Source: a virus (taxonomy: Duplodnaviria > Heunggongvirae > Uroviricota > Caudoviricetes). Taken from it: DNA of 64,000 nt. Location of the stretch: IMG/VR virus record IMGVR_UViG_3300035034_003552, one strand, 5' to 3'. The position numbers and the translations under genes are program-made. This document shows, in pieces, positions 12,786 through 62,171 of the stretch. Numbering within the stretch: the stretch's first letter is position 1; each line of letters opens with the position of its first letter. Below the pieces are notes generated by a model, which was given only the letters and a program-made list of their open reading frames with translations, made no database searches and had not been told where the DNA came from.

Positions 12786-12801
12786 TGGAGGTGAGTTGTA
12801 A

Positions 12802-17130: not shown

Positions 17131-17139
17131 GAGGAAATA

Positions 17140-17502: not shown

Positions 17503-17515
17503 AGGAGGTACTAAA

Positions 17516-21316: not shown

Positions 21317-21335
21317 AAAGAAAGGCAGTGATACT

Positions 21336-22109: not shown

Positions 22110-22122
22110 AAGAGGTGGAATA

Positions 22123-22557: not shown

Positions 22558-22558
22558 T

Positions 22559-22675
22559 ATGTCAGATCTTAAATTTAATGGGACAAAGCCAAAAGAAAAA
22601 GAACCGGCAGAAAAGATAAAAGACCTCGAAGCTAGAATAGACAAGCTAGAAGAAATAATAAAAGAAAACGGATAG
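22559..22675 (+). CDS. Small (38 aa) coiled-coil peptide ORF, below the ORF-track cutoff.
   Basis: SD 'agaggtga' then ATG at 22559. It ends exactly where the next gene's SD begins. 'MSDLKFNGTKPKEKEPAEKIKDLEARIDKLEEIIKENG'. Confidence 0.35.
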   Translation: MSDLKFNGTKPKEKEPAEKIKDLEARIDKLEEIIKENG

Positions 22676-22685
22676 GAGGCAGTAA

Positions 22686-23516: not shown

Positions 23517-23528
23517 GGAGGTAAATAA

Positions 23529-24335: not shown

Positions 24336-24348
24336 GGGAGGTGGATAA

Positions 24349-26325
24349 ATGCCACTTACTGACGAAGAAATGGAAAATAGGATACTCGAATTAGAGAGTG
24401 CGCTCGAATACCACGACCACATAGTACTATTTGAAAACGGTGGCGGGGGAGCGGACATTAAAAAGAATGCATTAACCTCAGAGCTTTCCACAGAGATCAA
24501 TAACAACTCCTCACACAGACTTACCCTTCAGAAAAACCCTCATGAAACAAGGGCACATCAAATACTTATCACTTCAGGCTCGTATCAGAGCCACAATATC
24601 GAAGAAGCTTTAAATATCATAGAAAATGACAGCCAAATAAATTATGGTGAACTGGAAGAATTCGCCGCACAGAAAACTAACACCATAAAAACCGGTGATG
24701 CCGTAACAAACTGGACTACAGCTGAGGCCTCAACCAAGAACAACAGGGCTCTCTTCGATCTGATAGGCAGTCATAAACATGATTCCAGATATCTTAATAT
24801 AGATGATTTCAATAACGAGATAGACAGGCATTATGATAGTGATGACCATGATGAAAGATACTACACCAAAGATAAGATGAACAGTGACCTCAACCTAAAG
24901 TCTAATAAAACACACCTTCATGATGATATTTATTTAAGGAGAAATCAGCTCGATGATCTGTATTTTAATGTAGCTGACGATGAACTCAATATAGACCTTG
25001 AGCTAATAAAGAATTCACCTAAAGTAATCCTGGACGATAAGAGCACTAACGGTAAGAACATACAGTTTAAGTCAACCAATGAGAGATTAGAGGTCGAAAT
25101 AAATAATAACCTAGCTGCTACCTTAAAGAAGGACTTTAACGTGCTCACATCTGGTGAAATTAAACTGCGGGGAACACCGGTATCCCTAGAAGGACATATC
25201 CATGATAACAGGTATTATACAGAAACAGAAACTCAGGACTTATTAAAAGATAAGTCGGAAAAAGGTCATGTGCACGACCATATATACTACAGAGAATCAG
25301 AAGTAGATAATTTCTTAGACGGCAAAACTGATGTTGGCCATGTGCATGTTGAACACTACACAAGAGAACAGGCTGATGATAGGTTTGTCAATGTAACTAC
25401 TGATTCAATAGAGAAACTTACTGTAGAAGATAAATTAATAATGAATGAGAGAATAGACCTGCACGAAAAAGGAATGCTTTTTAAAAGCTATATGTCTGGG
25501 ATAAATGTTAGCAATGATCCAGGCGGAGAACTGAGCATGAAAATTGATGCCGGCAACTTAGACCAGCTTTATTTGGATACTGACAAAGTAAAGGTTAGAA
25601 GAAACCTTGAAGTTGTTGGCGATATAGAACTGGGCCATCTAATAAACGGTGTCAATATAGAAGACTTAAATGAAGATTACAATTACCATAAGGCTCAGAG
25701 CGATTCTCACCACGAAAAATACACAGACCGCGAAGCAAGAGTAGCAATCTACAATGACTCAAACCACTACGATTTATCCAACCACCAACATAATCATAAT
25801 GATATATATTATAAAAAAGACTTTCTGGATTCAAGGTTCGATCAGAAATCAGATAAAGGCCATGATCATGATGATCAGTATATGCCAATAGATGAGCTGC
25901 AGAAAGAGCTTGATAATAAATCAGATATAGACCACCTTCACGATGATAGATACTACACCAAAGATAAGATGAATGAACAGATAACTCTAATAGGTGACGA
26001 GCTGGCCAGAAAATCAAACAAAACTCATGACCATAATGAAGAATATTACACTCATGATGATGTTGAAAGAATAATAGAAGAAAGAACTGGTAACAGCACC
26101 TATATAGTAAGTGGAGAAATAGTAACTGACATAAATGGTAGGGCCACACTCCCCATTCCATCGGGATTCTTAAGACAGGAGTGTCACTACATGGCTTCTA
26201 TAGGTGAGAATACACTGATACCATATTCCAGTTCTGGAATAGATATAAATAGAAGTAATGGTGAAATAAGAGTGCGTCCAAGCAGCGTAGATTCAGTAAA
26301 CTATATAGTAATTGGTGTTAGATAG
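24349..26325 (+). CDS. Histidine-repeat tail fiber (658 aa): at least 10 copies of an HxHDxRYYTK-type motif, C-terminal domain of type II.
   Basis: 'SHKHDSRYLNIDDF', 'DDHDERYYTKDKMNSDLNLKSNKTHLHDDIYL', 'GHIHDNRYYTETE', 'GHVHDHIYYRESEVDNFLDGKTDVGHVHVEHYTREQADDRF', 'NHQHNHNDIYYKKDF', 'GHDHDDQYMP', 'IDHLHDDRYYTKDKMNEQ', 'THDHNEEYYTHDDVE'. The C-terminus is shared with the 21336 gene. Confidence 0.75.
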   Translation: MPLTDEEMENRILELESALEYHDHIVLFENGGGGADIKKNALTSELSTEINNNSSHRLTLQKNPHETRAHQILITSGSYQSHNIEEALNIIENDSQINYGELEEFAAQKTNTIKTGDAVTNWTTAEASTKNNRALFDLIGSHKHDSRYLNIDDFNNEIDRHYDSDDHDERYYTKDKMNSDLNLKSNKTHLHDDIYLRRNQLDDLYFNVADDELNIDLELIKNSPKVILDDKSTNGKNIQFKSTNERLEVEINNNLAATLKKDFNVLTSGEIKLRGTPVSLEGHIHDNRYYTETETQDLLKDKSEKGHVHDHIYYRESEVDNFLDGKTDVGHVHVEHYTREQADDRFVNVTTDSIEKLTVEDKLIMNERIDLHEKGMLFKSYMSGINVSNDPGGELSMKIDAGNLDQLYLDTDKVKVRRNLEVVGDIELGHLINGVNIEDLNEDYNYHKAQSDSHHEKYTDREARVAIYNDSNHYDLSNHQHNHNDIYYKKDFLDSRFDQKSDKGHDHDDQYMPIDELQKELDNKSDIDHLHDDRYYTKDKMNEQITLIGDELARKSNKTHDHNEEYYTHDDVERIIEERTGNSTYIVSGEIVTDINGRATLPIPSGFLRQECHYMASIGENTLIPYSSSGIDINRSNGEIRVRPSSVDSVNYIVIGVR

Positions 26326-26340
26326 AAAGGAGGATTATAA

Positions 26341-26799
26341 GTGTTTTATTTACTTGATGAAGATACATTAGAGATAAAAGCCTCTCTTAGAGGGAAGCCC
26401 AACATAGAGGAGATAGAAAAAAACGGAATCATAGTCCTAGACTCACATTATGAATACTCTCCTCGAAAACTTGAGGCGGTCAAAAACTATGACAAAATAC
26501 GACTTACCTTCAAGCCCGAGATTAAAACTTACACAGAGGTCAACAAAAATCACATAATAATTAATATAGAAATCCATAAAGAAAATGGAGATATAGATAC
26601 AGAAAGATCAGAAGACTTAACCATATTCAGAGAAGACTATGATAATCCAGATGATACTTTTTTCACCGAGGTAACATTAGAAAATGGTAAAGCCAGAAAG
26701 GAACTAGTAGTTAAAGATACTGGCAAGTATATTATCGAAGTCAGAAACTCTAACTTTAGTGACACCTCTGAGACGGTAGTTGTGGAGGGGATTATCTAA
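26341..26799 (+). CDS. Hypothetical small protein following a fiber gene (GTG start); possible assembly or chaperone protein.
   Basis: SD 'aaaggagg' + GTG; 152 aa. The N-terminus 'MFYLLDEDTLEIKASLRGKPNIEEIEKNG' resembles that of the 22123 product 'MYLLINTDKETIYGFASSKPNTDDLEKNN'. Confidence 0.55.
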   Translation: MFYLLDEDTLEIKASLRGKPNIEEIEKNGIIVLDSHYEYSPRKLEAVKNYDKIRLTFKPEIKTYTEVNKNHIIINIEIHKENGDIDTERSEDLTIFREDYDNPDDTFFTEVTLENGKARKELVVKDTGKYIIEVRNSNFSDTSETVVVEGII

Positions 26800-28940
26800 T
26801 GTCAAAGATTATAAAAAGAACAGATCAGACTTATGAAGAAGTTAAAACTAATTTTGAAATAAACGTTCTCAATGATATAGAAACAATTTTTAAGGATATA
26901 GATGCAGAAATATCAGAAAGAATAACTTCTGATGAAGAACTCCAGATTCAAATAGAAAGCCTCAGTGGAGATCTAACATCACAGGTAAGTTTAATAAACA
27001 ACATGATAACAGAAGAGACTAATAGGATAGACAGCAGAGTAGATCAGGAAATCTCTACTAGGGAAATAGAAGTAGAAAACTTAAATACTCGTGTCGATAA
27101 AGAGATTACCGATAGGAAAAACGAAGTAGATAGGCTTGACACCAGGGTAACAGACGAGGCTAATAAAAGGCTCAATGAAGATACACAGCTGCAGAATAAT
27201 ATAGATACACTGGAAAACTATACAGTTAATAATGTATCAAGGATAGATACTGACATATCGAATCTCGAAAATAGGACATCCTCCCTTAATGCAACTGTCA
27301 ATAAAACAATAAATGACAATGAAACAGATAGTATAAATAGGGACAATGATCTGCACGATAAAGTAGATCAAAACGAGGTAGAAAGTATTGACCGAGACCA
27401 GGAGATAAAAGATAAACAGTTTTACATACTGGCCCAGGAGGAAAAGAGTACCTCAGTAGATACAACTTCTGTTACTTTATCCACTGACCTAAACGTTGTA
27501 AGTGACCCCGATTATGTAACAATAAAGAACTTAGATGGATCAGAAGTATTAGACAGCAGCGGTAATCCTGTAGTGGCTGTCTCGATGTCCGATAAGACGG
27601 TAACACTAAGTGAGGCGCCCAATGAGCCGATAAAGATAGAGTTTGCCCATAGGAAGCATTTCTGGAACCTCTCAGCCGACTCGATGCTGGTTGGAGATAT
27701 AGTATCCTCCAGAAAAGACGCAGACATATCAGAGATAATTGGAGTGAAGTATTTTGACGGAACAAAGTCAGTATTCGATAATGATTCACTTGATGTAAGA
27801 ATTGACACTTTAGACAGTGATATTAATTCAAGAGTGGACAATGAAGTCTCTACTTTAAACAGCAGGATGGATAGTGAAGTCTCAACCTTAAACTCCAGAA
27901 TTACCTCAGAAAGAAATACCCTAAACGATAGAATAGATTCTGAAGTAAGTTCGCTGGATTCTGATATAGCCAATCTGGATTCAAGGGTAACTTCAGAGAA
28001 AAATACCTTAAATAACAGAATAGATAGTGAGGTATCCACATTAAACTCCACCATAAACAGTGAAGTTTCTACATTAAATAGCAGAATAGATACTGAAGTA
28101 TCTAATCTTAATACAGCAATAGACACAAGTCATACCTCGCTTCAAAATCAGATAGACTCACTTTCAGATGATTACAACTCTCACCTCCATGATAGCAGAT
28201 ACATTATGGAGGCTGGAGATACAATGCGCGGGAAGTTAAACATGAATGGTAATAAGTTTGTTGTTTATGGAGACAACTCAGATGGTGCATATCTTAATAG
28301 TGATAGCGGCATTTCTGGCCCTAATGATAACTTATTTATCGCAAAAACAGATGCACAGGGCATTCCCGATGGCAACATAGTAATAGGCTGGCATAACTTG
28401 GCTAACGGTTCTAAAGGGAAAGACATCACTATAGATCCTAACAATCTAATCCATCTTCACGAAACTACCCGTCTCTCTCAAGGGGCCACTCTTCAGAAGA
28501 CAAAATCAAATGGAGCAACAGACACTATAATAGATGATCATGGTAGAGTCTGGAACTCTGTTTACAATGACCTGGCAGAGATGTTTGACTGTGACGTAGA
28601 TGCTTCTCCTGGGGACATAATGTCGATTAGTGATGGTAAAGTAATAAAATCTCAACGATATTACAGCGAGAAGGTAGTTGGTGTTTACTCAGACACTTTT
28701 GCTCAATGTTATGGTGGTCAGCCTGATGATGAAGGAGCTGTTCCAATAGGGATAGCAGGTCGGGTTGATGTTAAAATAAAAGGTCCCATAGAAGAAGGTA
28801 ACTTAATAACTTCAAGCAAGGAGGAGGGTGTCGGACAGAAGGCAGATGTTCACGTTGTAGGCACGGTAATAGGAAAGGCTTTAGAGAACAAAGAATCAAA
28901 GGGAGTAGAAAGAGTCAAGATGCTCATACTAAATAACTAG
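26799..28940 (+). CDS. Coiled-coil tail fiber with 9-11 aa tandem peptide repeats and C-terminal domain of type I.
   Basis: Long 'ETNRIDSRVDQEISTREIEVENLNTRVDKEITDRKNEVDRLDTRV...' coiled coil. Repeat block 'RVDNEVSTLNSRMDSEVSTLNSRITSERNTLNDRIDSEVSSLDSDIANLDSRVTSEKNTLNNRIDSEVSTLNS'. 'NSHLHDSRYIMEAGDTMRGKL'. The C-terminus is shared with the 22686 gene. Confidence 0.75.
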   Translation: MSKIIKRTDQTYEEVKTNFEINVLNDIETIFKDIDAEISERITSDEELQIQIESLSGDLTSQVSLINNMITEETNRIDSRVDQEISTREIEVENLNTRVDKEITDRKNEVDRLDTRVTDEANKRLNEDTQLQNNIDTLENYTVNNVSRIDTDISNLENRTSSLNATVNKTINDNETDSINRDNDLHDKVDQNEVESIDRDQEIKDKQFYILAQEEKSTSVDTTSVTLSTDLNVVSDPDYVTIKNLDGSEVLDSSGNPVVAVSMSDKTVTLSEAPNEPIKIEFAHRKHFWNLSADSMLVGDIVSSRKDADISEIIGVKYFDGTKSVFDNDSLDVRIDTLDSDINSRVDNEVSTLNSRMDSEVSTLNSRITSERNTLNDRIDSEVSSLDSDIANLDSRVTSEKNTLNNRIDSEVSTLNSTINSEVSTLNSRIDTEVSNLNTAIDTSHTSLQNQIDSLSDDYNSHLHDSRYIMEAGDTMRGKLNMNGNKFVVYGDNSDGAYLNSDSGISGPNDNLFIAKTDAQGIPDGNIVIGWHNLANGSKGKDITIDPNNLIHLHETTRLSQGATLQKTKSNGATDTIIDDHGRVWNSVYNDLAEMFDCDVDASPGDIMSISDGKVIKSQRYYSEKVVGVYSDTFAQCYGGQPDDEGAVPIGIAGRVDVKIKGPIEEGNLITSSKEEGVGQKADVHVVGTVIGKALENKESKGVERVKMLILNN
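27797..28130 (+). repeat. Tandem about 27-33 nt DNA repeats encoding the (D/T)SEVSTLNSRI peptide repeats inside the 26799 fiber gene.
   Basis: Read directly. The repeats also create the spurious antisense ORF 27512..28126 (repetitive 'SILLFKVETSLS'). Confidence 0.6.
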
Positions 28941-28952
28941 GAGGAAATAAAA

Positions 28953-29246
28953 ATGACAGTAATCGATATTAATGGTGTGGTCTTAAAAGAGTATAGAGAT
29001 GCTAATTTCTATATTGCGAATGGAACTAATGGTAAAACATACGGGTTTAAGATGTCCAAAAAGACAGGTTCTACTGAACTCAAACAGCTCGCCACAGACG
29101 CAGAAGAGTTTAACATAAGAATGATAGATAATGACAATATGGATGTTATAGCAGAGCTTTTAGACGCTGAGCTCGTAAATTACAACTTTGACGATACCGA
29201 TGAAGAAATAAATCTAAAGGGAACTAATTTAACTATTTATAAATAA
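28953..29246 (+). CDS. Hypothetical small protein.
   Basis: SD 'aggagg'; 97 aa; followed by a GC hairpin. Confidence 0.55.
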   Translation: MTVIDINGVVLKEYRDANFYIANGTNGKTYGFKMSKKTGSTELKQLATDAEEFNIRMIDNDNMDVIAELLDAELVNYNFDDTDEEINLKGTNLTIYK

Positions 29247-29299: not shown

Positions 29300-29629
29300 A
29301 TGTACGAATATAAAGCAGTTGTAACAAGAGTAATAGATGGTGACACATTTGAAGCCAATGTAGATTTAGGATTTAAAACCTATCAGAGACAAACCTTCAG
29401 ACTAAAGGGTGTTGATACTCCAGAAGTTTATGGAACAGAGGAGATAAGAGGTCTGGAAGCAAAAGATGTTGTTGAGAATATGATTTTAGGCAAAGAAGTT
29501 ATTATCGAGACAGAAAAGACTGGCAGCTTCGGTAGATGGATAGCAGATGTAACGGTACCCAGAGAAAATGGGGGAATTAATTTAGGAGATTTACTAATAA
29601 AGAATGGTTTGGCAGAAATATACGAATAG
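29300..29629 (+). CDS. Thermonuclease (staphylococcal nuclease, SNase-like) family protein.
   Basis: SD 'aggagg'. 'VIDGDTFEANVDLG...QRQTFRLKGVDTPEV' matches the SNase signatures (DGDT ... RLxGIDxPE); 109 aa. Confidence 0.7.
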   Translation: MYEYKAVVTRVIDGDTFEANVDLGFKTYQRQTFRLKGVDTPEVYGTEEIRGLEAKDVVENMILGKEVIIETEKTGSFGRWIADVTVPRENGGINLGDLLIKNGLAEIYE

Positions 29630-29642: not shown

Positions 29643-32141
29643 ATGTCAAAAGATTATATAGAAGATTTTATGGGCACACTACCCGAGTACCAGAGAAAAG
29701 AGTTTGATAAGATACTCGGCAAAAAAGAAGAAGATGGACTTATCAAGAGCAAAGAAGAATATGAACAGGAGCTTGATAAGCTAATAAACAAACTGAATGA
29801 AGAAAAACCAGAACCAATGACTAAGTTCAGAAAACAGTCTGGGAAAACAGATTCTGGAGATTATAATAAGACTTTTGATGAAATAAATATAGACTTGAAC
29901 GCATTATTTCAACAGTCTACCAACCTGGATAAAGCTGTTTCCAAACACCACCAGCTGAATAAATCAGGGTTGATGCTGATCAAAAAGAATATAAAGGACC
30001 TGGAGAACAAAGTATCAAGATATATGACACTACTTGGCAACAACGAAGGGTTTATAGATTCCTTCTATGAAACATTTTTGGATTCTACCAATAAAGAAAA
30101 AGAACATAAATACTATACAGACCCAATGACAGAAAGTCAGATCGACAGTAATGATATTGCTAAGATAGACCAAACAGGAGAGGCTCTAAAATTAGCAACT
30201 ACAGAAAGTATAGATTGTTTAACAAGTGAAAGCGGCAGCAGACTTGCTCAAATTAACATATTAAAACAGCCGGGAAGCGGATTTATAGGAGATGCCAATG
30301 ACATCTACGATATAGAAAAGGCAATTGATGATGATTTAGAAAGCTTCTGGGGTGAAGTTATCCTATCAGACGGAGAGATGAAACTTGATTTTAGTGATTA
30401 CGGCATAACAGAAGGAGCTTTTTGCGAATTCGAGATAGTATTCAATTCACTATCAGTAATCTCTGAGATAAACTTTTCTCCATTCACTGAGTTCCCAATG
30501 GAAGTCCTAAATATTAGATCATACGATGGTTTAACCAAAACAGCAGAAAGAACCGACCTCTTAAATCATACAGATTCCATTTCTATAGATGAACCACACA
30601 CCTTCCAATTCCCAGCAATTGAATCAAGAAGATTAGTATTTGTAGTAAACCAAAAACACTTTAAAGAAAATAACTACCTCGTAAAACAATCAGAGAGAAA
30701 TAACACTGAAATGTGGCAGAAGATAACCAATAAAGAAAAAGAAGTAACAGCTTCTGGAGAATGGGTAGATGATCTAAACGGTGAAAATCCTACAGTAAGT
30801 CAGGACTTCCTGAACACTATAAGCGGCTGGGACACATACGAGAAGAAATTAAAAGAATTCAATAAAAAAGTAAGGGAAAATGAAAAGAAATCTAACTTTA
30901 TGGGCACCTTAACCGGTATCTTAACAGCAGGAGCAGTAGTAATGACAGGTGGTGCGATAACACCAGCTCTAACAATAGGGGCAATAGGAGCAGGGGCAGG
31001 TGTAGGAAACCTAGTAAAAGACGGATTGCTTGAGAATTATGACTTCAGAAAAGACAAGTTAATAGAGGTAAATAAAAAAGAGTACTTATACGGCCTATAC
31101 GATATAGATATAAAAGGCAAAAAGTATATAAATAATTCTGTTTATGTATCAAAGCCAATCAAAACTCCGGCCAACATATCACAGATTGCCCTTGAAACCT
31201 CGGAAAGTCACCCCAGCTTAGATGAGTTCCCAAACATAGATATAACTGACATAGAATATTATGTAACTAATATAGATGAACCAACAGAAGATGACTGGTA
31301 TCCGATACTACCGACAAATAAGAAGTTTATAGATTCAGAAAGATTATTTGTTGATGCCTACACAAGCAAGGCAGAACTTAAATTTGAGGTACAGGATATG
31401 GGGTCTATCAAAATATACTCCAACAATGAAAGACTGAATCTAAATACTGACTACAGTCTGGATAATAAGACAGTAGATGGTAAAACCATAACTGTTGTTA
31501 CATTAAATAATATAAGCACAGGCGCTCTCTATACAGCATCATACAGACCAAAGAGTACAGCACATCTGCTTGATTTAGGTAATTCCGATGAAGTCACGAA
31601 GCTGACTAAAATCGAGAACTTTGAAAACGGAGCAGACAGAAACGGCATGGTTAAACTTAAAAACTATCCTTTCATAGACTACAGTAAGATCAACTCAGAA
31701 GAAAGAGCTAGCGGCTATGATCCTAATTTATCTGATTACAGACCGATAGAGGTAACTTTAAACGGGAGAATAGAGGGAAATAACGGTCACCTTTATCCTG
31801 CAGCCAGACCGATGCATATAAATGAGGATGGACCACAAACTAAAAATGTTACAAATTATACTGATAAAATACAAACTTCGCTAAGAGGTTATGAAGTAGA
31901 CGACTATCCTTTCTTTGAGTATCGACAGGATGGCAGCAAGATATTCTTCTCAGACAGTTTCAATGAATACGATAATGTTGATACCACAAACTCTACGGCA
32001 GAGATAAAAGTAAAGTACTCTTATTTAATATCAAAACTGAGAGTTAAAGCCGTACTCAGAAGAAACGTAGCCGGCAAAGAGTCAGTAACACCAGTACTTG
32101 AAGACTATACGCTTAAGTTTAAGACAGTGAATACTGGATAG
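29643..32141 (+). CDS. Paralog A of a five-member family (832 aa) with a conserved N-terminal domain and a central glycine-zipper hydrophobic segment.
   Basis: N-terminal 'KFRKQSGKTDSGDYNKTFDEINIDLNALFQQST...GFIDSFYETF' aligns with the N-termini of the 32153, 34386, 36420 and 36678 products. 'MGTLTGILTAGAVVMTGGAITPALTIGAIGAGAGVGNLV' is a Gly-zipper membrane-like segment. Confidence 0.7.
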   Translation: MSKDYIEDFMGTLPEYQRKEFDKILGKKEEDGLIKSKEEYEQELDKLINKLNEEKPEPMTKFRKQSGKTDSGDYNKTFDEINIDLNALFQQSTNLDKAVSKHHQLNKSGLMLIKKNIKDLENKVSRYMTLLGNNEGFIDSFYETFLDSTNKEKEHKYYTDPMTESQIDSNDIAKIDQTGEALKLATTESIDCLTSESGSRLAQINILKQPGSGFIGDANDIYDIEKAIDDDLESFWGEVILSDGEMKLDFSDYGITEGAFCEFEIVFNSLSVISEINFSPFTEFPMEVLNIRSYDGLTKTAERTDLLNHTDSISIDEPHTFQFPAIESRRLVFVVNQKHFKENNYLVKQSERNNTEMWQKITNKEKEVTASGEWVDDLNGENPTVSQDFLNTISGWDTYEKKLKEFNKKVRENEKKSNFMGTLTGILTAGAVVMTGGAITPALTIGAIGAGAGVGNLVKDGLLENYDFRKDKLIEVNKKEYLYGLYDIDIKGKKYINNSVYVSKPIKTPANISQIALETSESHPSLDEFPNIDITDIEYYVTNIDEPTEDDWYPILPTNKKFIDSERLFVDAYTSKAELKFEVQDMGSIKIYSNNERLNLNTDYSLDNKTVDGKTITVVTLNNISTGALYTASYRPKSTAHLLDLGNSDEVTKLTKIENFENGADRNGMVKLKNYPFIDYSKINSEERASGYDPNLSDYRPIEVTLNGRIEGNNGHLYPAARPMHINEDGPQTKNVTNYTDKIQTSLRGYEVDDYPFFEYRQDGSKIFFSDSFNEYDNVDTTNSTAEIKVKYSYLISKLRVKAVLRRNVAGKESVTPVLEDYTLKFKTVNTG

Positions 32142-32152
32142 GAGGTCAATTA

Positions 32153-34384
32153 ATGCCAGATAAATATAGAATAAAAAGCAACAGCAATATATTAATAAAG
32201 CAAGCTAGAGACATACTGGATAAAATCGGGGACAACATAAGAGACAAGAATCTATCGAAGTCTTCTGAGGTTATAAAAGAAATGCTTGAGGGCTTAAAGA
32301 ATATGTTTACTGAGATAGGTAAACCAAAGATGAAGAAAAGATATGCCCCAATAGATGGTCCCCCTTGGTCTGAGGACTACAATAAAACGATGAAAGAAAT
32401 ACAGGAGGACTTAAACACTTCCTATGATGAGATGCAAAGCCTCGAAGATGGAGTAATAACAGACTTTAACTTCAACAAAATACAGCGTACCAATATAAAT
32501 AATAGAATAGGTGTACTCAAGGAAAGGCTAAATGACTTTGTTTTATTTACAAATATAGATAATGATCTGGTACATGCTAAAGATATGTTCAATAACTTGG
32601 ATATGGTAGACGTAAAAGGAACATCGGGCAGCAGAGCTGCAATAGATACAGATAATGGGGTTGTCTCTTTATCGAGAGCCGGCTCAGAAAATCTATCACC
32701 GAATATGAACGTAGATATAGTAAAGACAAACAGTAACGGATTCCCGGGCAACTTACACCAGGTTAAAAACGCAAATCCTATAGAGGGCGGACAATTTGAG
32801 CCCATAAAAAGAAAAGACCCTGAGTGGATGTTTTACGGAGAAGAAGATATGCACCTCGTACCAGAAACAGTTTTAGATAATAACCCAGATACATGGTTTG
32901 AATATGAGTGCTGCGATATACCAGAATCAAAAAAGAAACAGCAAAAGCACTTCGGATTCACCTATGAAGATGGAGAACAATGGTCAAGAGATCCCGCAGA
33001 ACCATATAAGCGCGATGGCCAGGCTCCAGAAATACAGGACAACAGCTCAACCGATTCATTCCTGGGATCTGTGAATAACGCTTTTAACGGTTCTGGTGGG
33101 ATAGTGGGCTCTGCACTAGGATCTATACACGGTTCTAGTTTAAGAAAGATAGGTAGAATAACTGGTAGTTCTGGTATTTTCGGTAAACTTTTTGGCTCTA
33201 TTAAAAACAGTAAATCAAGTAATAGTGGAAACAGGAACAAAAATCAGGCTGATCTTTCAAAGCCACTTAGGTTAAACCTTGAACTTAGCTTTGAGGAAGC
33301 TCAGATAGCAAACTGGATCAATGTAAATCCACACGTACCTCCTTTTGATGGATCAACAGCTCCTAGAGTTGTAAATATATTCATTTCAGACGGGGATGAG
33401 TATAAGAGATCCATCGTAGATGAGACATATAAAGACCTGCGTCTAAGTGAAGAGTTAAACGAATCTCCGGCTACATATGAAGAAGATGAAATACCTAGTG
33501 GTGATAACTTCACTGGCCAGGCTGTTTATACATTTCCGCCTTCTAAGACAGAAACAATCTCGATAATAATAGAACAGGAAGCTCCTTATGATTGTCGGAT
33601 AGGGCATATATATTACCAGAGAGTGGATAAGATTAAAACAGAAGAGACCGGGCCATTAGGCGGTATTTTCGGAGGTAATGATACATCTTATGAGACAAAA
33701 AAGACTTATGTAGAAGGACCGAAAGTTAAGCTCGGCGTCTTATATACTGACTGGGATGACAAACTAGGTATAACTGATTTAGGTGAAGGAACATTCGCTG
33801 AACCACTTACTGATCTAGTGGGAGGTATATCGGGTTTTGTCTTCGGCAGTGAAGAAAAATCACTTGTTAGCAGCAATATAGAATCTGGGATAAATGGATT
33901 TGAGGGCTGGAGATGGGCGATAGGAATAAAAGGAATCAATGTCTTTGCCTATGAATTCGAACAGACAAGTGAAATAGTAAGTAAAGAGCACATAATAGGG
34001 GATTCAATAAAGAGAATATCTCTTACAGTAAATGAAGAAATACCAAAAAGTTTTGTAACCAACGATAATTACGAAAAAAGAAACGACTGGATAAAATACT
34101 ATGTATCAGTTGACGGCAATCAGTGGCACAGGATAAGTCCAGAGTCACACGGAGAAACAATAGAAAACGGTGATATAGTCCCTGAAGTATACGTAGTAAA
34201 TAGTGAAGTCTCAGAGGAGAACAGAAATCCCAATACTGGTTATATAGATTTAGAAAAGGATGCGGCAACAGTAAGATTTAAAGCAATCCTTTCAAGACCA
34301 ACCAGTATAGAAGATGCAGAGCATTTCACTCCAGTACTAAGAGGTTATGCGCTCAAAATGCAAACTGAAGGTGAGGTAGTATAG
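32153..34384 (+). CDS. Paralog B (743 aa) of the same family, with a Gly/Ser-rich hydrophobic stretch.
   Basis: 'KMKKRYAPIDGPPWSEDYNKTMKEIQEDLNTSYDEMQS' N-terminal motif. 'GSVNNAFNGSGGIVGSALGSIHGSSLRKIGRITGSSGIFGKLFGSI'. Confidence 0.7.
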   Translation: MPDKYRIKSNSNILIKQARDILDKIGDNIRDKNLSKSSEVIKEMLEGLKNMFTEIGKPKMKKRYAPIDGPPWSEDYNKTMKEIQEDLNTSYDEMQSLEDGVITDFNFNKIQRTNINNRIGVLKERLNDFVLFTNIDNDLVHAKDMFNNLDMVDVKGTSGSRAAIDTDNGVVSLSRAGSENLSPNMNVDIVKTNSNGFPGNLHQVKNANPIEGGQFEPIKRKDPEWMFYGEEDMHLVPETVLDNNPDTWFEYECCDIPESKKKQQKHFGFTYEDGEQWSRDPAEPYKRDGQAPEIQDNSSTDSFLGSVNNAFNGSGGIVGSALGSIHGSSLRKIGRITGSSGIFGKLFGSIKNSKSSNSGNRNKNQADLSKPLRLNLELSFEEAQIANWINVNPHVPPFDGSTAPRVVNIFISDGDEYKRSIVDETYKDLRLSEELNESPATYEEDEIPSGDNFTGQAVYTFPPSKTETISIIIEQEAPYDCRIGHIYYQRVDKIKTEETGPLGGIFGGNDTSYETKKTYVEGPKVKLGVLYTDWDDKLGITDLGEGTFAEPLTDLVGGISGFVFGSEEKSLVSSNIESGINGFEGWRWAIGIKGINVFAYEFEQTSEIVSKEHIIGDSIKRISLTVNEEIPKSFVTNDNYEKRNDWIKYYVSVDGNQWHRISPESHGETIENGDIVPEVYVVNSEVSEENRNPNTGYIDLEKDAATVRFKAILSRPTSIEDAEHFTPVLRGYALKMQTEGEVV

Positions 34385-34385
34385 T

Positions 34386-36413
34386 ATGGGCATAAGAAGA
34401 AGACATATTAGAGAAACACTAGAGAAGATAATCAAAGAGGAGATACAAAAGGGTAGATATCCCAATACAGAAACAATAACTAATAGATTGAGAAAAGAGT
34501 TTGATAAACACCAACCGGGATTACCCAAGTTCGGACCGATAAAAGCCCCTAAAAATGGGGTGTCTTCTCCAGAAGATTATAATGAAATGATAGAAGAAAT
34601 CTATGAAGATCTATATATGGTGTTTACTGAAACATCAGAACAGGCCAATAGATTGCTTAAGAACTTCGATTATGGTGAAGTAGAGAGAAATAAAATACTT
34701 AAAAGACTCGAAAAGCTTGAGGACAGAATAGATAATCTGCTGCTTCTAGCTGAGAATACGGACGGCTACTTAGACAGCATATATGATAACTTTCACGATT
34801 ATGAGAATATAAACATGGAAGAAACCACGGCCAATGTTGACTTAAAAAGCAGAGAAGTCTCATTGGGAGAAATAAAAAGTGATGGTAAAAAGTATTCTCT
34901 TACTAATAGGAGGTATGAAGTTGATATAGTAGATGGCCCGGGTAGGCTTGAAACAATAGAGTCATTTTCCAACGCCTTGGATGACTATCTTAATTCAGCC
35001 TGGATGACAAAACTGGTAAAGAGTGATAAGTCTTCAGCCACAGTAGAAGTGGTTATCCATCTGACCGATCTCGAGAACGACCCCAATGATAGGTTTGCTG
35101 ACGAGATACTGGTAAGCTCGCTAGAGTTTGTCGACAGCAGCCCGAAAATTACTGAAGTTTCGGCCATGTGGTCAAATGATAATATAAACTATTTTAGCAT
35201 AGATAAAAATAAGCAGCTGGTAGATGTTGTAGAGAATGAAAAATGGATCTGCGATGAAACGCCAATGCAATATATAAAGTTGAGGCTGACCAAAAATGAA
35301 CCAGATAAGGAACTTGAAGATGGAAACTTCCTTTATAGGTTCGGCGCCAAGAGTATAGATGTTAAGAAAGTAGGCTTTAAACAAGCTGGCAGATTTGTTT
35401 CAAAATATCATGATGTTAGTAACATAGATAGTGCGAATCCAATCAATCAAGTATCACTTGATGTAGTAGAAGAACTTCCCAAATTTACTTCTATAGAATA
35501 CTACCTTGACTTCCCCGAAAGTACAGGACTTATTCCCATAAGTAAGATAGAAGATCCAAACCCAGAACACACTAAAATAATCAACCTGGATAATATCTCG
35601 ACACCAAATCCAATAGACATAACTGGATCCTCAAACAAGATAGATACTCATAACGGAATAGACTTCTACAACCTAAAGTCGCTCGGCCACACCCCAACAA
35701 AAGGTAGTGTTAACCTATACAGAGGTAAGGACATGTGGAAAAAGCAAGAATTTGTAACAGAAAGCTATAAAGATACCGATTATTCCCATGAGCCAACACT
35801 TAAAGATTGGGTGAACCTCCCTGGTGATGTTAAAAAGAGCGATATAAAACCCGATTTTCTAAACAGCAGCTCAAACTTGAATAAATCAAATAGCCAGGGA
35901 GCTATGACCAAGTGGACTACTTACATTCATTGTGAAACAACTAAAACCATAAAAGAGAGCATAACAATAGCAGAAGATGTTAATACAGCTCTAATACTAA
36001 ATGGTAGAACAGTTTCAGTAGATGAGGATGGCAATTATATTATCAGAATGCCTCAAGGTTGGAACAAGATAGAAGTATTAAGTTACAACAAAGATAACAA
36101 TTCGACTAATATAAATATTAACTTCTCCCCTCATAACTACGGTAAAATGCTTGCCGAAAACTCTCCTCTAGAAAAAGTTAGCACTTATGATCTCAAGAAT
36201 AATGTCTTAATGAATGATAAGAATAAATACGCCATAGACGGCAATAAGATTATTCTAAACTATGATCCTAGCGGTCTAGAGTATGAAATAAGCTACTCTT
36301 ATGCTGTTTCAACAGGGTTTAATGAAATTAAGCTAGTGGCAGAACTTAAAAGAGAAAGAGACCAGGCAAGTCTTACTCCAAAACTTAAGAAATACAATAT
36401 AAGAATTTCATAG
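34386..36413 (+). CDS. Paralog C (675 aa) of the same family.
   Basis: 'FGPIKAPKNGVSSPEDYNEMIEEIYEDLYMVFTETSEQ...GYLDSIYDNFHDYE' aligns with A, B and E. Confidence 0.7.
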   Translation: MGIRRRHIRETLEKIIKEEIQKGRYPNTETITNRLRKEFDKHQPGLPKFGPIKAPKNGVSSPEDYNEMIEEIYEDLYMVFTETSEQANRLLKNFDYGEVERNKILKRLEKLEDRIDNLLLLAENTDGYLDSIYDNFHDYENINMEETTANVDLKSREVSLGEIKSDGKKYSLTNRRYEVDIVDGPGRLETIESFSNALDDYLNSAWMTKLVKSDKSSATVEVVIHLTDLENDPNDRFADEILVSSLEFVDSSPKITEVSAMWSNDNINYFSIDKNKQLVDVVENEKWICDETPMQYIKLRLTKNEPDKELEDGNFLYRFGAKSIDVKKVGFKQAGRFVSKYHDVSNIDSANPINQVSLDVVEELPKFTSIEYYLDFPESTGLIPISKIEDPNPEHTKIINLDNISTPNPIDITGSSNKIDTHNGIDFYNLKSLGHTPTKGSVNLYRGKDMWKKQEFVTESYKDTDYSHEPTLKDWVNLPGDVKKSDIKPDFLNSSSNLNKSNSQGAMTKWTTYIHCETTKTIKESITIAEDVNTALILNGRTVSVDEDGNYIIRMPQGWNKIEVLSYNKDNNSTNININFSPHNYGKMLAENSPLEKVSTYDLKNNVLMNDKNKYAIDGNKIILNYDPSGLEYEISYSYAVSTGFNEIKLVAELKRERDQASLTPKLKKYNIRIS

Positions 36414-36419
36414 GAGTTG

Positions 36420-36677
36420 ATGATAATCGAAAACAAAAACTTTAAAACAGAAATGAAAAAAAGAAATGCGCGGCACAGAGGCCCCACTGAGAGTTATAAG
36501 TATAATATGGATGTTTATGAAAGAGTGGTAGATATCAGTAACGCCTATGAAAACATAGAATACACCGATGAGATCCTAGCTCAAAGACAAGGGGTAGAAG
36601 CTACCAAAAGAAACAATGCACAGAGATTGAATAAGATAAAAGACGAGTTAGGCGAAATGATAAAGGAGGTCAATTAA
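36420..36677 (+). CDS. Paralog D: an 85-aa stand-alone copy of the family's N-terminal motif only.
   Basis: 'KKRNARHRGPTESYKYNMDVYERVVDISNAYENIEY' matches the motif; ATG at 36420, with TTG at 36417 as an alternative. Confidence 0.5.
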   Translation: MIIENKNFKTEMKKRNARHRGPTESYKYNMDVYERVVDISNAYENIEYTDEILAQRQGVEATKRNNAQRLNKIKDELGEMIKEVN

Positions 36678-37925
36678 ATGCCAGATAAATTCACTCCCAG
36701 TTTAAAAAAGCCAAATGTAAGATACAGAGGAAAGACCTCTAGTAAAGAGTACAACCAGATGACTAATAATCTCTATTATGACTTAAGTAATATATTCACT
36801 GAGACCAATAAGAACACCAAAGAAGCTGCAGACCTCATTGATCAGCTGACATTAGAAAACAAAATACTGAGCAACCAGATAAAAGAACTTGAGGGTAAGC
36901 TTGATAACGTAAAAGACCTATTAGTAGAGATTCAGAAAAGAAATAATCAGTACAACAAGACTATATTTGCTGATGACTTTAAGGAAGACAGTGATGCAAG
37001 TACTGTAAACAAAGCCTTCATAGACTCTGAACATAGAGTGGCCACCCTGCCCACAAGCGGCAAGGGAATAAGTAAGACACATATTTGGGACTCATTTAAA
37101 GAGGAGGTGTTTATACCAGATGAATTAAAGGTTTCATTTAATAAGTCAATAGAAGACTATGTTGATGCAGAAGAAAATGACCCAAAGAATGTTTTCGATG
37201 GATCAGATGAAACAACATGGATCAGAAAGATAAGATATCCAGACGATGACCCAAAGACTACAGAGGAACTTACAATGTATGTTAAGCTCCCTGAAAACAT
37301 AATAAATAACAGGCTATTTAATACCATAATAGTCCATCCCTTCCCGATAAATGGGCTCGACATAATGAACATCGAATACTCTAAAAGTGTTACGAGCAAT
37401 ATAAATAATGCAAAGTGGGATAGAATACCAGGGTGGCCGAGGAATGAAAAAGCAGAGCCAATCAACATTAATAATAGTGGACCCATAAAGTTCTGTTTTG
37501 AAGATATCAATGCTAACTGGATAAGGATAAAAATAAGACAGAATAAATCCATCATAGAAAACAATATGAAAGTATTTAATATCGGGCTAAAACAGTTTGA
37601 AATTAAGTACAACAACTATACTTCAGAAGAAGCTTCATTTATAATACCTATTAATTTGACTGCGCCAGAGGCTGTCCTATATACGATAAGGGACATAAAA
37701 GCGCTATTGGATAATGATAGCACAATATCTGAAGGTTACAGGTCCTACAGTCTTGAGGTTTATGGTAAAGACGAGTTCGGTGATACCGAGTATTTAGGCA
37801 GCAATCTACCAATAAAGAATATAAAACATAAAAACATAGAAGTTAAGGTTACAATACATGCAGATAAAAACAAAGAGTCAACCCCTGCTGTATCAGCCTT
37901 AAATATATACTACGAAGCTATTTAA
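36678..37925 (+). CDS. Paralog E (415 aa) of the same family.
   Basis: SD 'aaaggaggt'. 'KKPNVRYRGKTSSKEYNQMTNNLYYDLSNIFTETNK' followed by the coiled coil 'LENKILSNQIKELEGKLDNVKDLLVEIQ'. Confidence 0.7.
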   Translation: MPDKFTPSLKKPNVRYRGKTSSKEYNQMTNNLYYDLSNIFTETNKNTKEAADLIDQLTLENKILSNQIKELEGKLDNVKDLLVEIQKRNNQYNKTIFADDFKEDSDASTVNKAFIDSEHRVATLPTSGKGISKTHIWDSFKEEVFIPDELKVSFNKSIEDYVDAEENDPKNVFDGSDETTWIRKIRYPDDDPKTTEELTMYVKLPENIINNRLFNTIIVHPFPINGLDIMNIEYSKSVTSNINNAKWDRIPGWPRNEKAEPININNSGPIKFCFEDINANWIRIKIRQNKSIIENNMKVFNIGLKQFEIKYNNYTSEEASFIIPINLTAPEAVLYTIRDIKALLDNDSTISEGYRSYSLEVYGKDEFGDTEYLGSNLPIKNIKHKNIEVKVTIHADKNKESTPAVSALNIYYEAI

Positions 37926-37954: not shown

Positions 37955-38500
37955 TTGGGAATATTCCAACAGAGTATGCAGGTAGCGTTCCGCTTTCTTT
38001 TTGGCCAGGTCAATTCGACTCTATCTGCATTCTTCCTGTTTTCTGCAATAGCACTTATAATTTCTTATTTTTCTAACAAAATGAAAGCAGTTAAAGAGCA
38101 GTCTAAATATATTGGGGTTTATAATGTTCTAATAATAATATCTCATCACATAGATATAATCATAATCAATAATATAGCCCCTGCTGAGGACACAACAAGG
38201 ATGTTTGTAATAATTCTCATGTCAGCCAGGGTTCTCAATGAGATATTTGCTTATTTTAAAACTGATGGCATAACAATACCTAAGATACTTACATTAAGTG
38301 TGGAAAAAATGGAAGAATTGGATAAGGAAGATCTAAAGAAAAACTTAAGCGGCAAGGAAAAAGACGACATGAACCAGTGGAATGAAGAAAAGATCAGCAA
38401 ACAAATTGAATACATCAGTAAAAAGATTAAAAACTTCGAGGAATTAGAAAAACAGATCAAAGAAAAACTTGATCGCCAAGAAGGAGGGGAGAATGAATAA
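37955..38500 (+). CDS. Holin-like membrane protein with a charged C-terminal tail; TTG start.
   Basis: SD 'aggagg' + 7 nt + TTG. N-terminal hydrophobic helices 'STLSAFFLFSAIALIISYF', 'VLIIISHHIDIIIINNIA'; highly charged C-terminus. Confidence 0.5.
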   Translation: MGIFQQSMQVAFRFLFGQVNSTLSAFFLFSAIALIISYFSNKMKAVKEQSKYIGVYNVLIIISHHIDIIIINNIAPAEDTTRMFVIILMSARVLNEIFAYFKTDGITIPKILTLSVEKMEELDKEDLKKNLSGKEKDDMNQWNEEKISKQIEYISKKIKNFEELEKQIKEKLDRQEGGENE

Positions 38501-39228
38501 TGACTATTTTTAAGATCCTTGCAACCATCTTCATGGAATTCGGGGTTGGGTTGTTTGTAGGACTGTTAATAAAAGAAGGAAGTCATGAAAACACTGTAGA
38601 TGAAATAAAGATAGCGACACTAATGTTTATTGTTGTCTTATTCAGTTGGTATTTCGGCTCGGCAAGAGCGATTATTGAAATAATCTTTGAAGTTAGTTAC
38701 CTATGGGGGGCACTTATATTTGGTGTATTCCTGGGTAACCATATTAAATTACGATTCTTCAAAAAGATAATATTCTTGCTAAGAAAGAAAGACCTACAAT
38801 TGGCAATATCGGAATATCAGATAATAGCGAATCAAGTTGCAATTAATTACAGTGATAAAACCATTAAAAAGATGGAAAATAAACTAGACAGGATAGGAAA
38901 ACTGATCAATAACCTAAAAGCTTTTAAAGATTACCAGACCGGTCAATGGATTATCCATCTAGATGAGATAAATACTATCTGTTATGAGTACTCAATGCTC
39001 AGTAAGAAGATAGGAGAACAAGAAAGTGATCGAAAGTTAAGAGATGACCTAATTCAGACCGGAGATGAACTGGCTGAAATCGTATATCACACACTAAATC
39101 ACACTGAAAAAGAACTTAACACGATAGGAATTATAACAAATAGAGGTGGTCATAATGAAAAAAGAAAACTTGATAGAGAAAAAAGCCAAAGAGATAATGG
39201 ACATAGCGAAGGGACTAAATCTGAGTAG
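38500..39228 (+). CDS. Multi-pass membrane protein in the lysis cassette (holin or antiholin-like) with a charged C-terminus.
   Basis: 'MTIFKILATIFMEFGVGLFVGLLI', 'IATLMFIVVLFSWYFG', 'LWGALIFGVFLG' predicted TM helices; ATGA overlap with the upstream gene. Confidence 0.5.
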   Translation: MTIFKILATIFMEFGVGLFVGLLIKEGSHENTVDEIKIATLMFIVVLFSWYFGSARAIIEIIFEVSYLWGALIFGVFLGNHIKLRFFKKIIFLLRKKDLQLAISEYQIIANQVAINYSDKTIKKMENKLDRIGKLINNLKAFKDYQTGQWIIHLDEINTICYEYSMLSKKIGEQESDRKLRDDLIQTGDELAEIVYHTLNHTEKELNTIGIITNRGGHNEKRKLDREKSQRDNGHSEGTKSE

Positions 39229-39790
39229 GGATATAGACCTGTCTGGTAAGTTAGTTATAGTAGATGCCGGCCATGGCGGAGAAGATCCTGGGGCAGTAGG
39301 ACAGAACGGCTTAAAAGAGTCAGAGGTAGCTTTAAAAGTAGCATACCTTGTTGGATATAAACTCAAAAAGATGGGCGCAAGAGTAGTACTAACACGCCCT
39401 ACAAATGAGTTCATCACTCTCAAAGAGAGAGTAGAAATCGCCAAAGAAGGAGAAAACAGAGAAGCTGACTGCTTTGTGAGCATTCACTGTAATGCAGTAG
39501 CAAACAGAGATGTGTCTGGTATAGAGACATATCACTACAGGAACAGCTCCACAGGACCAGAGTTAGCAGATAGTATCCAAACCTCTATTATGGCTTTATT
39601 TGATGAGAATAAAGATAGAGGGGTCAAGGGAGCTGGCCTATATGTTACTAAATACACACCAATGCCTGCAGTGCTGACAGAGTTAGAATTCATTTCAAAT
39701 CCCGAAATGGAAAAGAAATTTAAAAATCCTAACATTATATATAAGTACACTGAAGCAATTTCAGAGGGTATAATAGACTACATTAAATAA
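39155..39790 (+). CDS. N-acetylmuramoyl-L-alanine amidase (Amidase_3 family) endolysin without a separate wall-binding domain.
   Basis: SD 'agaggtgg' 5 nt before ATG 39155. 'LVIVDAGHGGEDPGAVG...VVLTRPTNEFITLKERVEIA...ADCFVSIHCNA...SGIETYHY' is the canonical Amidase_3 (CwlD-like) motif set. The 5' end overlaps the 38500 gene out of frame. Confidence 0.8.
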   Translation: MKKENLIEKKAKEIMDIAKGLNLSRDIDLSGKLVIVDAGHGGEDPGAVGQNGLKESEVALKVAYLVGYKLKKMGARVVLTRPTNEFITLKERVEIAKEGENREADCFVSIHCNAVANRDVSGIETYHYRNSSTGPELADSIQTSIMALFDENKDRGVKGAGLYVTKYTPMPAVLTELEFISNPEMEKKFKNPNIIYKYTEAISEGIIDYIK

Positions 39791-39801
39791 GGAGTGATTA
39801 T

Positions 39802-40095
39802 ATGACAATAGAATTAGTAGTAGTTGGAGCAATAGCAGGTCTGGTTGGAATAGCAGTTGGCCAATATGTAAAAACAGACGATGTCGATAAGCTAATAACC
39901 ACATTATCTAAAATATCTAATATAGTGGTAAAGTCGACAGAACAGGACATAGGTAATAAGTCTGGTGATCAGAAAAAGCATGTTGCAAAGATGAAACTCA
40001 AAAATGAAATGCAGAACCTCGGTATTGACCTGGCAGAAACACTAATGGATGAGGCTATAGAGGCCTCAGTTAAAGAGATGAACAAAGAAGAATAA
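39802..40095 (+). CDS. Small membrane protein with an N-terminal TM helix (holin or spanin-like).
   Basis: SD 'aaggagtg'; 'MTIELVVVGAIAGLVGIAVGQYV', then a charged tail. Confidence 0.5.
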   Translation: MTIELVVVGAIAGLVGIAVGQYVKTDDVDKLITTLSKISNIVVKSTEQDIGNKSGDQKKHVAKMKLKNEMQNLGIDLAETLMDEAIEASVKEMNKEE

Positions 40096-42200: not shown

Positions 42201-43209
42201 GTTTGGATGTCATCTGCCAAATGGGTATTTCAAGCGAGGACAATATATAACATCTGATGACTTACTGGATATGCGCAAGAAGTACAGTAATACAGGAATT
42301 TATACTACAATTTATAGATATTCTAAAGAATTAGAAGAAGAAGACCCCATTTACGGACCATTTTATTTGGACTTCGATGCTGATATGTGGGGCGTCAGCG
42401 ATGATGTAGCAGAAAAGAACTTAAAAAAAGTACAGGAAGACTTAAAACTAGCAATAACTTATTTTGAAGTCATATACAACATACCGAGGGAATATGCCAG
42501 ATGTTACTATTCAGGTAAAAAGGGGGTACATCTGGTTTACCCTGCTGATCTATTCGGGATTAAGCCGAGGGAAGACCTTAATAGAATATTTAAGCTTATA
42601 AAAGATGATGTAAGTAAATATGTCAATCACGACACGATAGATCAAAGAATATATGATAATAAAAGATTATTCAGAGTGCCAAACTCAAGGCACCAGGATA
42701 CAGGACTTTATAAGATACCGGCCAGTCCAGATTTTTTAATAAACAGCTCACTCAAGGAGATAAGAGATAAGGCAAAGATGCCACAGGAGCTTAAAGTTAA
42801 AGAACCCAGGACATTAAGAAAGCCGGCAAAACAGTACAGAGCAGTAGTTGATAAATATGAATACCAGAAAAAAGAGCGGGAAGAAAAGATGAAAAGGTAC
42901 AAAGATAAGCCGTTAAAACACACACCTCCATGTATCGATAACCTATTAGAAGACGGAGCACGAAAGGGCCACCGCAACAATTCGATGGCTGCACTAACAA
43001 GTTTTCTCAAACAGACTGGGTTAACCGAAGAAGAGGTATTCATGAAAATAAAGAAGTGGGGCAAAGAGAAATGTGTTCCACCAATTAATGAAAACGAGAT
43101 AAAAGCGACAGTCCCTTCAGTTTATGGAAGTGAAAAGAACTACGGATGTGCAGCACTAAAGGAACTATCGACTTGTGAAAAGGATAAATGCAAGCTGGTA
43201 AAAGATTAA
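42157..43209 (+). CDS. Archaeo-eukaryotic-primase-type primase-polymerase (PrimPol) with a C-terminal PriCT-1 domain.
   Basis: AEP motifs 'FYLDFD' (DxD), 'GKKGVHLVYP' (sGxGxH), 'RLFRVPNSRHQDTG'. The C-terminal 'GARKGHRNNSMAALTSFLKQTGLTEEEVF' fits PriCT-1 (GxRNxxLxxxA). ATG 42157 after 'aggaaggtg'. Confidence 0.7.
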   Translation: MKLSIAKDPQYSMIEFGCHLPNGYFKRGQYITSDDLLDMRKKYSNTGIYTTIYRYSKELEEEDPIYGPFYLDFDADMWGVSDDVAEKNLKKVQEDLKLAITYFEVIYNIPREYARCYYSGKKGVHLVYPADLFGIKPREDLNRIFKLIKDDVSKYVNHDTIDQRIYDNKRLFRVPNSRHQDTGLYKIPASPDFLINSSLKEIRDKAKMPQELKVKEPRTLRKPAKQYRAVVDKYEYQKKEREEKMKRYKDKPLKHTPPCIDNLLEDGARKGHRNNSMAALTSFLKQTGLTEEEVFMKIKKWGKEKCVPPINENEIKATVPSVYGSEKNYGCAALKELSTCEKDKCKLVKD

Positions 43210-58801: not shown

Positions 58802-58807
58802 TAACTT

Positions 58808-58836: not shown

Positions 58837-58848
58837 CCCATAATAAAA

Positions 58849-62160: not shown

Positions 62161-62171
62161 ATCATTTCCTC

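Follow-up and report, generated by a model that had tools for sequence, protein, structure and literature searches.

Bacillus phage 0305phi8-36 carries five genes, gp171–175, whose products are all annotated in GenBank as detected by mass spectrometry in virions, gp172 and gp173 at low copy number; section 15 of Hardies et al. 2007 (PMC2147016) names the coiled-coil products of this region under 'additional baseplate/fibre'. The literature passages searched describe gp171–175 only as coiled-coil virion proteins and give no paralogy, fold or function for them. Here we analyzed a 64,000-nt stretch of DNA from a tailed virus of the Caudoviricetes (IMG/VR record IMGVR_UViG_3300035034_003552; hereafter the window), in which five contiguous genes on the + strand (positions 29643–37925), termed A to E, form an array that, judged by its sequence, is the syntenic orthologue of gp171–175. 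The two arrays are alike in gene order, place in the genome and coiled-coil N-termini, and their members are one-to-one orthologues of 832/743/675/86/415 amino acids (aa) in the window and 755/591/686/82/398 aa in 0305phi8-36; identity is about 23–30%, and the 0305phi8-36 proteins lack both a 124-aa glycine-zipper insert of A and a 69-aa Gly/Ser insert of B. Detection in virions comes from 0305phi8-36 alone, and for the present phage the array is known from its genes. What is new here is that four PHROG families and the small D protein make up one paralog family with a coiled-coil anchor and, as predicted from models, a discoidin-type head.

Branched or multi-receptor-binding-protein systems with common N-terminal anchor modules, e.g. 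the CBA120 tailspikes TSP1–4 and G7C gp63.1/gp66, resemble the array in that adjacent genes share an N-terminal assembly module and differ in their distal parts; however, the distal parts of the array proteins are homologous and orthologously conserved rather than swapped enzymatic tailspikes, and the array proteins showed no similarity, in sequence or in fold, to T4 gp10-like anchor domains. In lactococcal phages, evolved Dit, Tal and BppA carry carbohydrate-binding modules (CBMs) for contact with cell-wall polysaccharide. These are like the array in placing lectin-type beta-sandwiches on structural proteins of the tail end (the location being inferred for the array), but the carrier proteins differ, with no detectable homology. 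Compared with CBM32/F5/8 type C domains, the corresponding domain of the array contains large insertions that break it up in A and B, and in phages KLEB27-3 and Edson it is apparently split over two genes.

Layout of the array and its orthologues

The five open reading frames (ORFs) lie on the + strand with intergenic gaps of 0–11 nt: A at 29643–32141 (832 aa), B at 32153–34384 (743 aa), C at 34386–36413 (675 aa), D at 36417–36677 (86 aa from a TTG start, or 85 aa from an ATG one codon on, at 36420) and E at 36678–37925 (415 aa), the smallest complete member. The ORF list thus bears out the five consecutive genes, with these positions and sizes, described in an earlier sequence-only reading of the window. 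The Bacillus phages 0305phi8-36, vB_BauM_KLEB27-3, Edson and vB_BceM_WH1, as well as Moorella phage MTATph1, yielded one-to-one orthologues in tblastn searches. A matched gp171 and its orthologues in KLEB27-3, MTATph1, Edson and WH1, C gave full-length matches in six phage records and is the orthologue of gp173, and E matched gp175 at 4e-46; B matched gp172, KLEB gp056, Edson 0670 and MTATph1 CDS0054 by BLASTP, and D is the positional counterpart of gp174. Each full-size member also matched its own PHROG family: A phrog_20243 (6.9e-138, over 5–829), B phrog_21108 (8.7e-97), C phrog_19683 (1.5e-64, over 2–671) and E phrog_19670 (3.8e-65, over 6–413).

The order A-B-C-D-E was kept in 0305phi8-36, KLEB27-3, Edson, MTATph1 and the metagenomic contigs L005–L011, and all relatives examined contain a separate orthologue for each paralog; WH1, which matches A, C and E, stood outside the synteny comparison. 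This set includes a 202-kb contig and a 120-kb contig, the latter with a close relative (L009) from an anaerobic-digester metagenome. A hidden Markov model (HMM) of the N-terminal module found three to five paralogs, in unchanged order, in each locus with the whole cassette, and contigs L013–L015 contained only two or three genes bearing this domain, in the same orientation. Lysis genes lie 3' of the array in the window, KLEB27-3, L005, L008 and L011, and primase and DnaB lie further downstream in 0305phi8-36, MTATph1, L010 and L014. Exhaustive HMMER search of metagenomes revealed 894 clusters (50% identity) at E<=1e-3, the best 150 of which were mostly of the size of E (about 400 aa); how large the family is became visible only in this exhaustive search, because a word-indexed homologue search returned only 4–6 relatives per query. 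The clusters that were looked up bore no informative names, a megablast of the 8.3-kb region against phage genomes gave no match, and a search of IMG/VR for related loci with an alignment of close relatives found none.

The N-terminal module shared by all five proteins

BLASTP between the paralogs (E values scaled to a database of 1e6 residues) connected the five proteins transitively, through B–C (2e-7), A–C (5e-6), C–E (5e-5), A–B (3e-3) and D–E (0.02). In profile–profile comparison, P ranged from 1e-11 to 1e-18 between the four full-size members (A, B, C and E) and was 2e-6 for D–E. PHROG cross-matches pointed the same way, residues 73–176 of B matching the C family and residues 29–164 of C the B family, and a 34-sequence HMM of the module matched exactly A–E among the + strand ORFs of the window. 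The N-terminal signature that the earlier reading had picked out is therefore real and not a chance resemblance. The HMM match of D (6.7e-18) is by construction, because D is among the 34 sequences from which the model was built; D is independently supported by its similarity to E in hhalign (2.3e-6) and by the BLASTP match above.

In A the module spans residues 53–147 (29799–30083, + strand; HMM 1e-26). It consists of a basic P-x-hydrophobic-K-K/R arm, a G..(S/T)S.(D/E)YN cap, a run of heptads forming a predicted coiled coil and a closing (Y)(D/E).F.D motif. The heptad pattern extends over about 58 residues (25–82 in E), with conserved hydrophobic columns spaced 3–4 apart in the 34-sequence alignment, and the stalk is a single long helix in both AlphaFold models (A and E). 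Whereas G18, N26 and D35 (E numbering) are all invariant in a 10-sequence alignment, the 34-sequence alignment retained N26 in 34 of 34 and D35 in all 33 aligned sequences, with G at position 18 in 20 of 34; N26 and D35 occupy flanking (e/g) heptad positions in all five families. A, B and C carry an additional helical extension of about 50 aa ahead of the module, which D and E lack. D is the N-terminal module alone in this phage, as had been proposed; D proteins of relatives share an RNARYRGP.ES.KY motif, and the KLEB27-3 and Edson versions are about 170 aa longer.

Full-length paralogy and predicted fold

The C-terminal regions of the array proteins had been taken to be unrelated to one another, but homology proved to continue well past the N-terminal domain. 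Profile–profile alignments paired A1–559 with B1–665 (P 1.3e-15), A10–569 with C1–399 (P 1.4e-18), A66–344 with E17–295 (P 2.4e-11), B13–663 with C3–387 (P 2.4e-18) and C46–339 with E6–323 (P 1.5e-14), so that paralogy among the full-size members extends over 260–480 aligned columns. Residues 475–578 of A matched both the B-family and the C-family model in PHROGs, and a joint alignment of the four families contained, in addition to invariant N75 and D84, the likewise invariant W236, F323, G484 and P817 (A numbering). A common closing motif (..K....R....TP.L..Y.L) occurs in the last ~50 residues. With leave-one-family-out profiles of the C-terminal part, A (8.9e-8) and B (1.5e-3) ranked highest outside the training set among the 218 frames of the window, and C and E were recovered weakly, if at all. 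The full-size members A, B, C and E are thus full-length paralogs on one plan, whose members differ by inserted domains and loops.

This plan comprises an N-terminal arm and cap, a coiled coil roughly 60 residues long, a small beta region, a jelly roll of CBM32/discoidin type, one or more further beta-sandwiches and a C-terminal strand motif. The AlphaFold model of A has helices at 3–53 and 71–131, a jelly roll at about 236–348 plus 473–503 and further beta domains up to residue 828. In E (mean predicted local distance difference test, pLDDT, 75) the CBM32/discoidin-like jelly roll occupies about residues 150–311 (37125–37610, + strand) and is followed by a C-terminal beta-sandwich with model strands at 318–414 (37629–37919, + strand), which ends in the TP.L..Y closing motif; P403 is invariant within the E family. 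As modeled, the eight-stranded jelly roll superposes on solved CBM32 and F5/8 type C members, and carbohydrate binding would be a putative function of such heads. Foldseek search of BFVD with the A model gave A7KUU5 (755 aa) at 3.4e-58, and A7KUU5/6/7/9, nameless in BFVD, ranged from 3e-58 to 4e-11; from their lengths (755, 591, 686 and 398 aa) we take these to be gp171, gp172, gp173 and gp175.

A–E had no significant match in Pfam or NCBIfam and no hit to the Pfam F5_F8_type_C models, the best of the wider family (L014:5087–7000) reaching 26.8 bits against a cut-off of 27.8. In sequence searches of PDB, the E-family profile, A and C drew nothing beyond coiled-coil noise, and homology to a known fibre or anchor domain together with a trimeric state was not found for A–E. 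The suggestion of an undescribed structural family is close to the truth: no sequence relative exists in Pfam, NCBIfam or PDB, and the orthologues have been known since 2007 only as coiled-coil virion structural proteins.

The A model also matched three entries of Acinetobacter phage vB_AbaM_ME3 (408, 713 and 520 aa) by Foldseek, with E values of 6e-6 to 4e-7. By length these are ME3_48, ME3_49 and ME3_53 (L018 7430–15303). ME3 has a Gram-negative host and is distantly related to 0305phi8-36, and the three genes lie where its structural operon ends. The link is by Foldseek only, because the N-terminal HMM gave no sequence match to ME3 proteins.

Conservation of the array

Identity per 100-aa window was flat from the N- to the C-terminus against L005, L008 and 0305phi8-36 (68%, 53% and ~25% identical, respectively), the B insertion excepted. 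No toxin domains were found for A–E in Pfam, NCBIfam or PHROGs, and the closely abutting array genes leave no immunity-like genes between them. The flat identity, the homologous C-terminal parts and the lack of toxin and immunity genes go against the proposal of a polymorphic effector family; likewise, a check for varying C-termini behind the N-terminal motif in other phages revealed no swapping, and some far C-terminal variation in E-type proteins only. Against 0305phi8-36, the module shows 24–30% identity, little less than primase and DnaB with 34–36% (up to 39% against other relatives), whereas the fibre genes at 10233–29246 have no 0305phi8-36 counterpart except one common domain at the C-terminal end of 17516–21316. 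Retention of the module where the fibre genes are not retained places it in the conserved core of the lineage and not in the hyperplastic host-range region.

Several E-type relatives carry C-terminal extensions (L010 10001–12889; L013 6107–10546; L012 1126–4797). The added part is either a Big_4 domain or a set of Listeria-Bacteroides repeats (numbering five in P0096 and four in P0082) together with an InlB B-repeat-like domain. Listeria-Bacteroides repeats and Big_4 domains are typical cell-surface modules, and their addition at the C-terminus of E-type relatives suggests that this end is exposed.

Insertions in A and B

The Gly-rich stretches on which a membrane role had been based are present in both A and B, although only that of A is membrane-like, and marginally so. 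The stretch in A lies within a clade-specific insertion at residues 349–472 (124 aa; 30687–31058, + strand), in the loop before the last jelly-roll strand. This insertion was present only in the window, L005 and L008/P0006 and was absent from gp171, MTATph1, P0007 and P0008, with the gene break of KLEB27-3 and Edson falling exactly there; tblastn of the insertion against cultured phages gave no match, and its AlphaFold pLDDT was 23–44. The A orthologue is divided into two or three genes in KLEB27-3 (L002 3774–7247, gp053–055) and Edson (L004 4906–7286, 0690/0680). In both phages the last break is located in the loop that precedes the final jelly-roll strand, that is, the loop holding the glycine-zipper insert in A of the window, so that this strand would need another polypeptide as its source.

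The core of the insertion is a 31-aa glycine-zipper hairpin, GILTAGAVVMTGGAITPALTIGAIGAGAGVG, at residues 425–455 (30915–31007, + strand), which holds an AxxxGxxxG zipper (447–455, AIGAGAGVG). The zipper is conserved in L005 and L008, mostly with synonymous codon changes, and no other orthologue has it. Over the 31 codons, the window and L008 differ by 19 synonymous and 3 conservative changes; the hairpin is under strong purifying selection within the uncultured clade. Its Kyte-Doolittle maximum was 1.55, and a crude sum on the Hessa scale gave +2.9 kcal/mol, compared with +1.2 to -0.15 for the holin-type proteins of the window. Isolated Gly-rich segments matched no glycine-zipper family in Pfam, and the A hairpin gave weak matches in PHROGs to phrog_594 (0.002) and a tape-measure family (0.02).

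The Gly/Ser/Asn-rich insertion of B (about 69 aa; 33026–33232, give or take a few codons, + strand) also lies in a jelly-roll loop and was found in this phage only, being absent from the 69%-identical L005_B, the 54%-identical L008_B and all cultured orthologues. It is not hydrophobic, its best 19-mer scoring about +9.8 kcal/mol by the Hessa scale, a tandem repeat test was negative, and it is read as a recent, probably neutral surface loop. The sequence-only reading had itself named one outcome as speaking against it, namely the Gly-rich regions being surface loops, and this is nearly what was found, given the absence of the B segment from such a close orthologue and of the A segment from all cultured relatives.

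Possible roles of the array

The array is an under-described, not a new, structural module, and the locus adds a member to a known, functionally blank family of virion proteins. With about even confidence, we take it to be a conserved low-copy virion-protein module at the distal end of the tail/baseplate/fibre operon, acting as an accessory adhesion or scaffold appendage with lectin-like heads. The N-terminal coiled-coil module would assemble the subunits as homo- or hetero-oligomers and dock them to the tail end, and the heads, turned outward, would contact carbohydrates or the envelope in a generic manner or support other fibres; in that case the module would not be the primary, fast-evolving receptor-binding protein. 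Several points weigh against this appendage model. Location at the tail, rather than neck or head, is inferred from gene order only; the AlphaFold models (mean pLDDT 75 and 65) were built on 10-sequence alignments; none of the five window proteins reached a Pfam family; the strong selection on the hydrophobic hairpin of A is left unaccounted for; and deep conservation of a fixed set of paralogs suits a structural scaffold no worse than an adhesin.

A purely architectural role is the main alternative, though a doubtful one. Here the five paralogs would co-assemble via their N-terminal helices into a hetero-oligomeric scaffold of a baseplate or tail-tip complex, in which A, B and C, sharing the ~50-aa extension, would form one unit and D and E a second, and with jelly rolls that serve as protein–protein modules holding the variable fibres without a ligand of their own. 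Such a scaffold is consistent with the fixed paralog set and order at only 24–30% identity, a level close to that of the replication genes, beside the hyperplastic fibre region, with the alignment of A, B and C from residue 1 and the lack of the extension in D and E, and with the N and D invariant at flanking heptad positions in all families. It would also suit D, a bare N-terminal module whose counterpart gp174 is nevertheless a virion protein, as well as the possible structural counterparts at the same operon end in the Gram-negative Acinetobacter phage ME3, and discoidin folds often make protein contacts. The Flg_new and Big_4 surface repeat domains added to E-type C-termini, however, argue for an exposed binding end. 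A further possibility, fibres of whisker type attached to the neck, collar or head, like T4 fibritin and head fibres, with coiled-coil stalks and lectin heads for environmental sensing or reversible surface binding, seems to us very improbable. The design of anchor, coiled coil and globular head is also that of fibritin-type proteins, the proteins are of low copy number and no result fixes their location, but PDB and BFVD searches showed no similarity to fibritin or known head-fibre proteins, and in 0305phi8-36 and ME3 the genes come last in the tail/baseplate/fibre block, a long way from those for head and neck (PMC2147016, section 15). Identity of the array with the curly fibres of 0305phi8-36 was considered and rejected, PMC4870245 ascribing these to the published candidates ORF119, ORF129 and ORF131.

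The reading that had first suggested itself, of baseplate-attached polymorphic effectors or membrane-penetration proteins whose Gly-rich segments enter the host membrane during infection, retains very little probability, and membrane penetration or effector delivery by the module as a whole is unlikely. The 31-aa hairpin of A with its (A)xxxGxxxG zipper is more hydrophobic than any other stretch in the family, with a value that approaches those of the window holins but stays above them; the hairpin is under strong purifying selection (19 synonymous versus 3 conservative changes) and faintly resembles tape-measure and phrog_594 segments. On the other hand, the flat orthologue identity comes without variable C-terminal cassettes, toxin domains or immunity genes, the A insert has no confident AlphaFold structure and no match to a Pfam glycine-zipper family, and the segment of B occurs in one genome only and is not hydrophobic. 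The A hairpin cannot be the conserved function of the module, because it is absent from 0305phi8-36, MTATph1, KLEB27-3 and Edson. The Gly-rich stretches are lineage-specific jelly-roll loop insertions, among which only that of A keeps a small chance of a membrane role. Most simply, its hairpin would be a self-association or packing element of the oligomer. We consider it improbable, though worth stating, that the selected cassette of A (helix, basic linker, glycine-zipper hairpin, helix), displayed on a loop of the lectin-like domain in this uncultured clade, is a virion-borne membrane-active element for insertion into, or anchoring to, the cytoplasmic membrane of the host; if so, it would be a membrane device outside the tape measure protein, borne on a peripheral tail protein.

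With the tempting polymorphic-effector reading removed, the conserved hydrophobic hairpin of A stands as a small, well-defined remaining question. The module, common in metagenomes (894 clusters), is a fixed component of the 0305phi8-36-like lineage of large phages, and its function has been blank since 2007; its view as one paralog family yields a model that is testable in a culturable phage (localization, glycan binding, homo- versus hetero-oligomer).

Neighboring genes

The array had been placed between a nuclease and a lysis cassette, which the gene assignments confirmed. Directly 5' of it, within the late structural operon, lies an SNase-type nuclease of 109 aa (29300–29629, + strand; Pfam SNase 7.6e-11, phrog_452 1.5e-29), and 3' of it a lysis cassette (37955–40095, + strand) encoding a holin-like protein (37955–38500), an unknown membrane protein, an Amidase_3 endolysin (39146–39790) and an LLH holin (39802–40095), all on the + strand. 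The nuclease is kept in L005–L007, and 0305phi8-36 has two small hypothetical genes at that spot instead. A Rad52-like annealing protein, primase and a DnaB-type helicase are located past the lysis cassette, and a tyrosine recombinase (Phage_integrase, 1.2e-45) lies on the - strand between primase and helicase (43206–44096), as it does in L008, which is unexpected in a presumably large lytic-type phage genome.

Upstream of the SNase gene is a long block of fibre-like genes. Three small proteins in it (21336–22109, 22686–23516 and 23529–24335; 257, 276 and 268 aa) share an N-terminus of ~60 aa, which matches tail-fibre PHROGs 2126 and 7389, and differ in their C-termini; one resembles tail-collar fibres (phrog_1800, 1.4e-32), and another weakly matches the Peptidase_G2 autoproteolytic domain. 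This trio is closer than the A–E array to a true swappable receptor-binding arrangement. The same block contains a 713-aa coiled-coil fibre protein (26799–28940) with 3.1 copies of an 11-aa (33-nt) repeat at 28004–28104; in the close relative L005 the protein at this position is only 202 aa long. At the far end of the window, GC skew and AT skew both flip sign near 58 kb (region ~58000–64000), where the genes switch to the minus strand.

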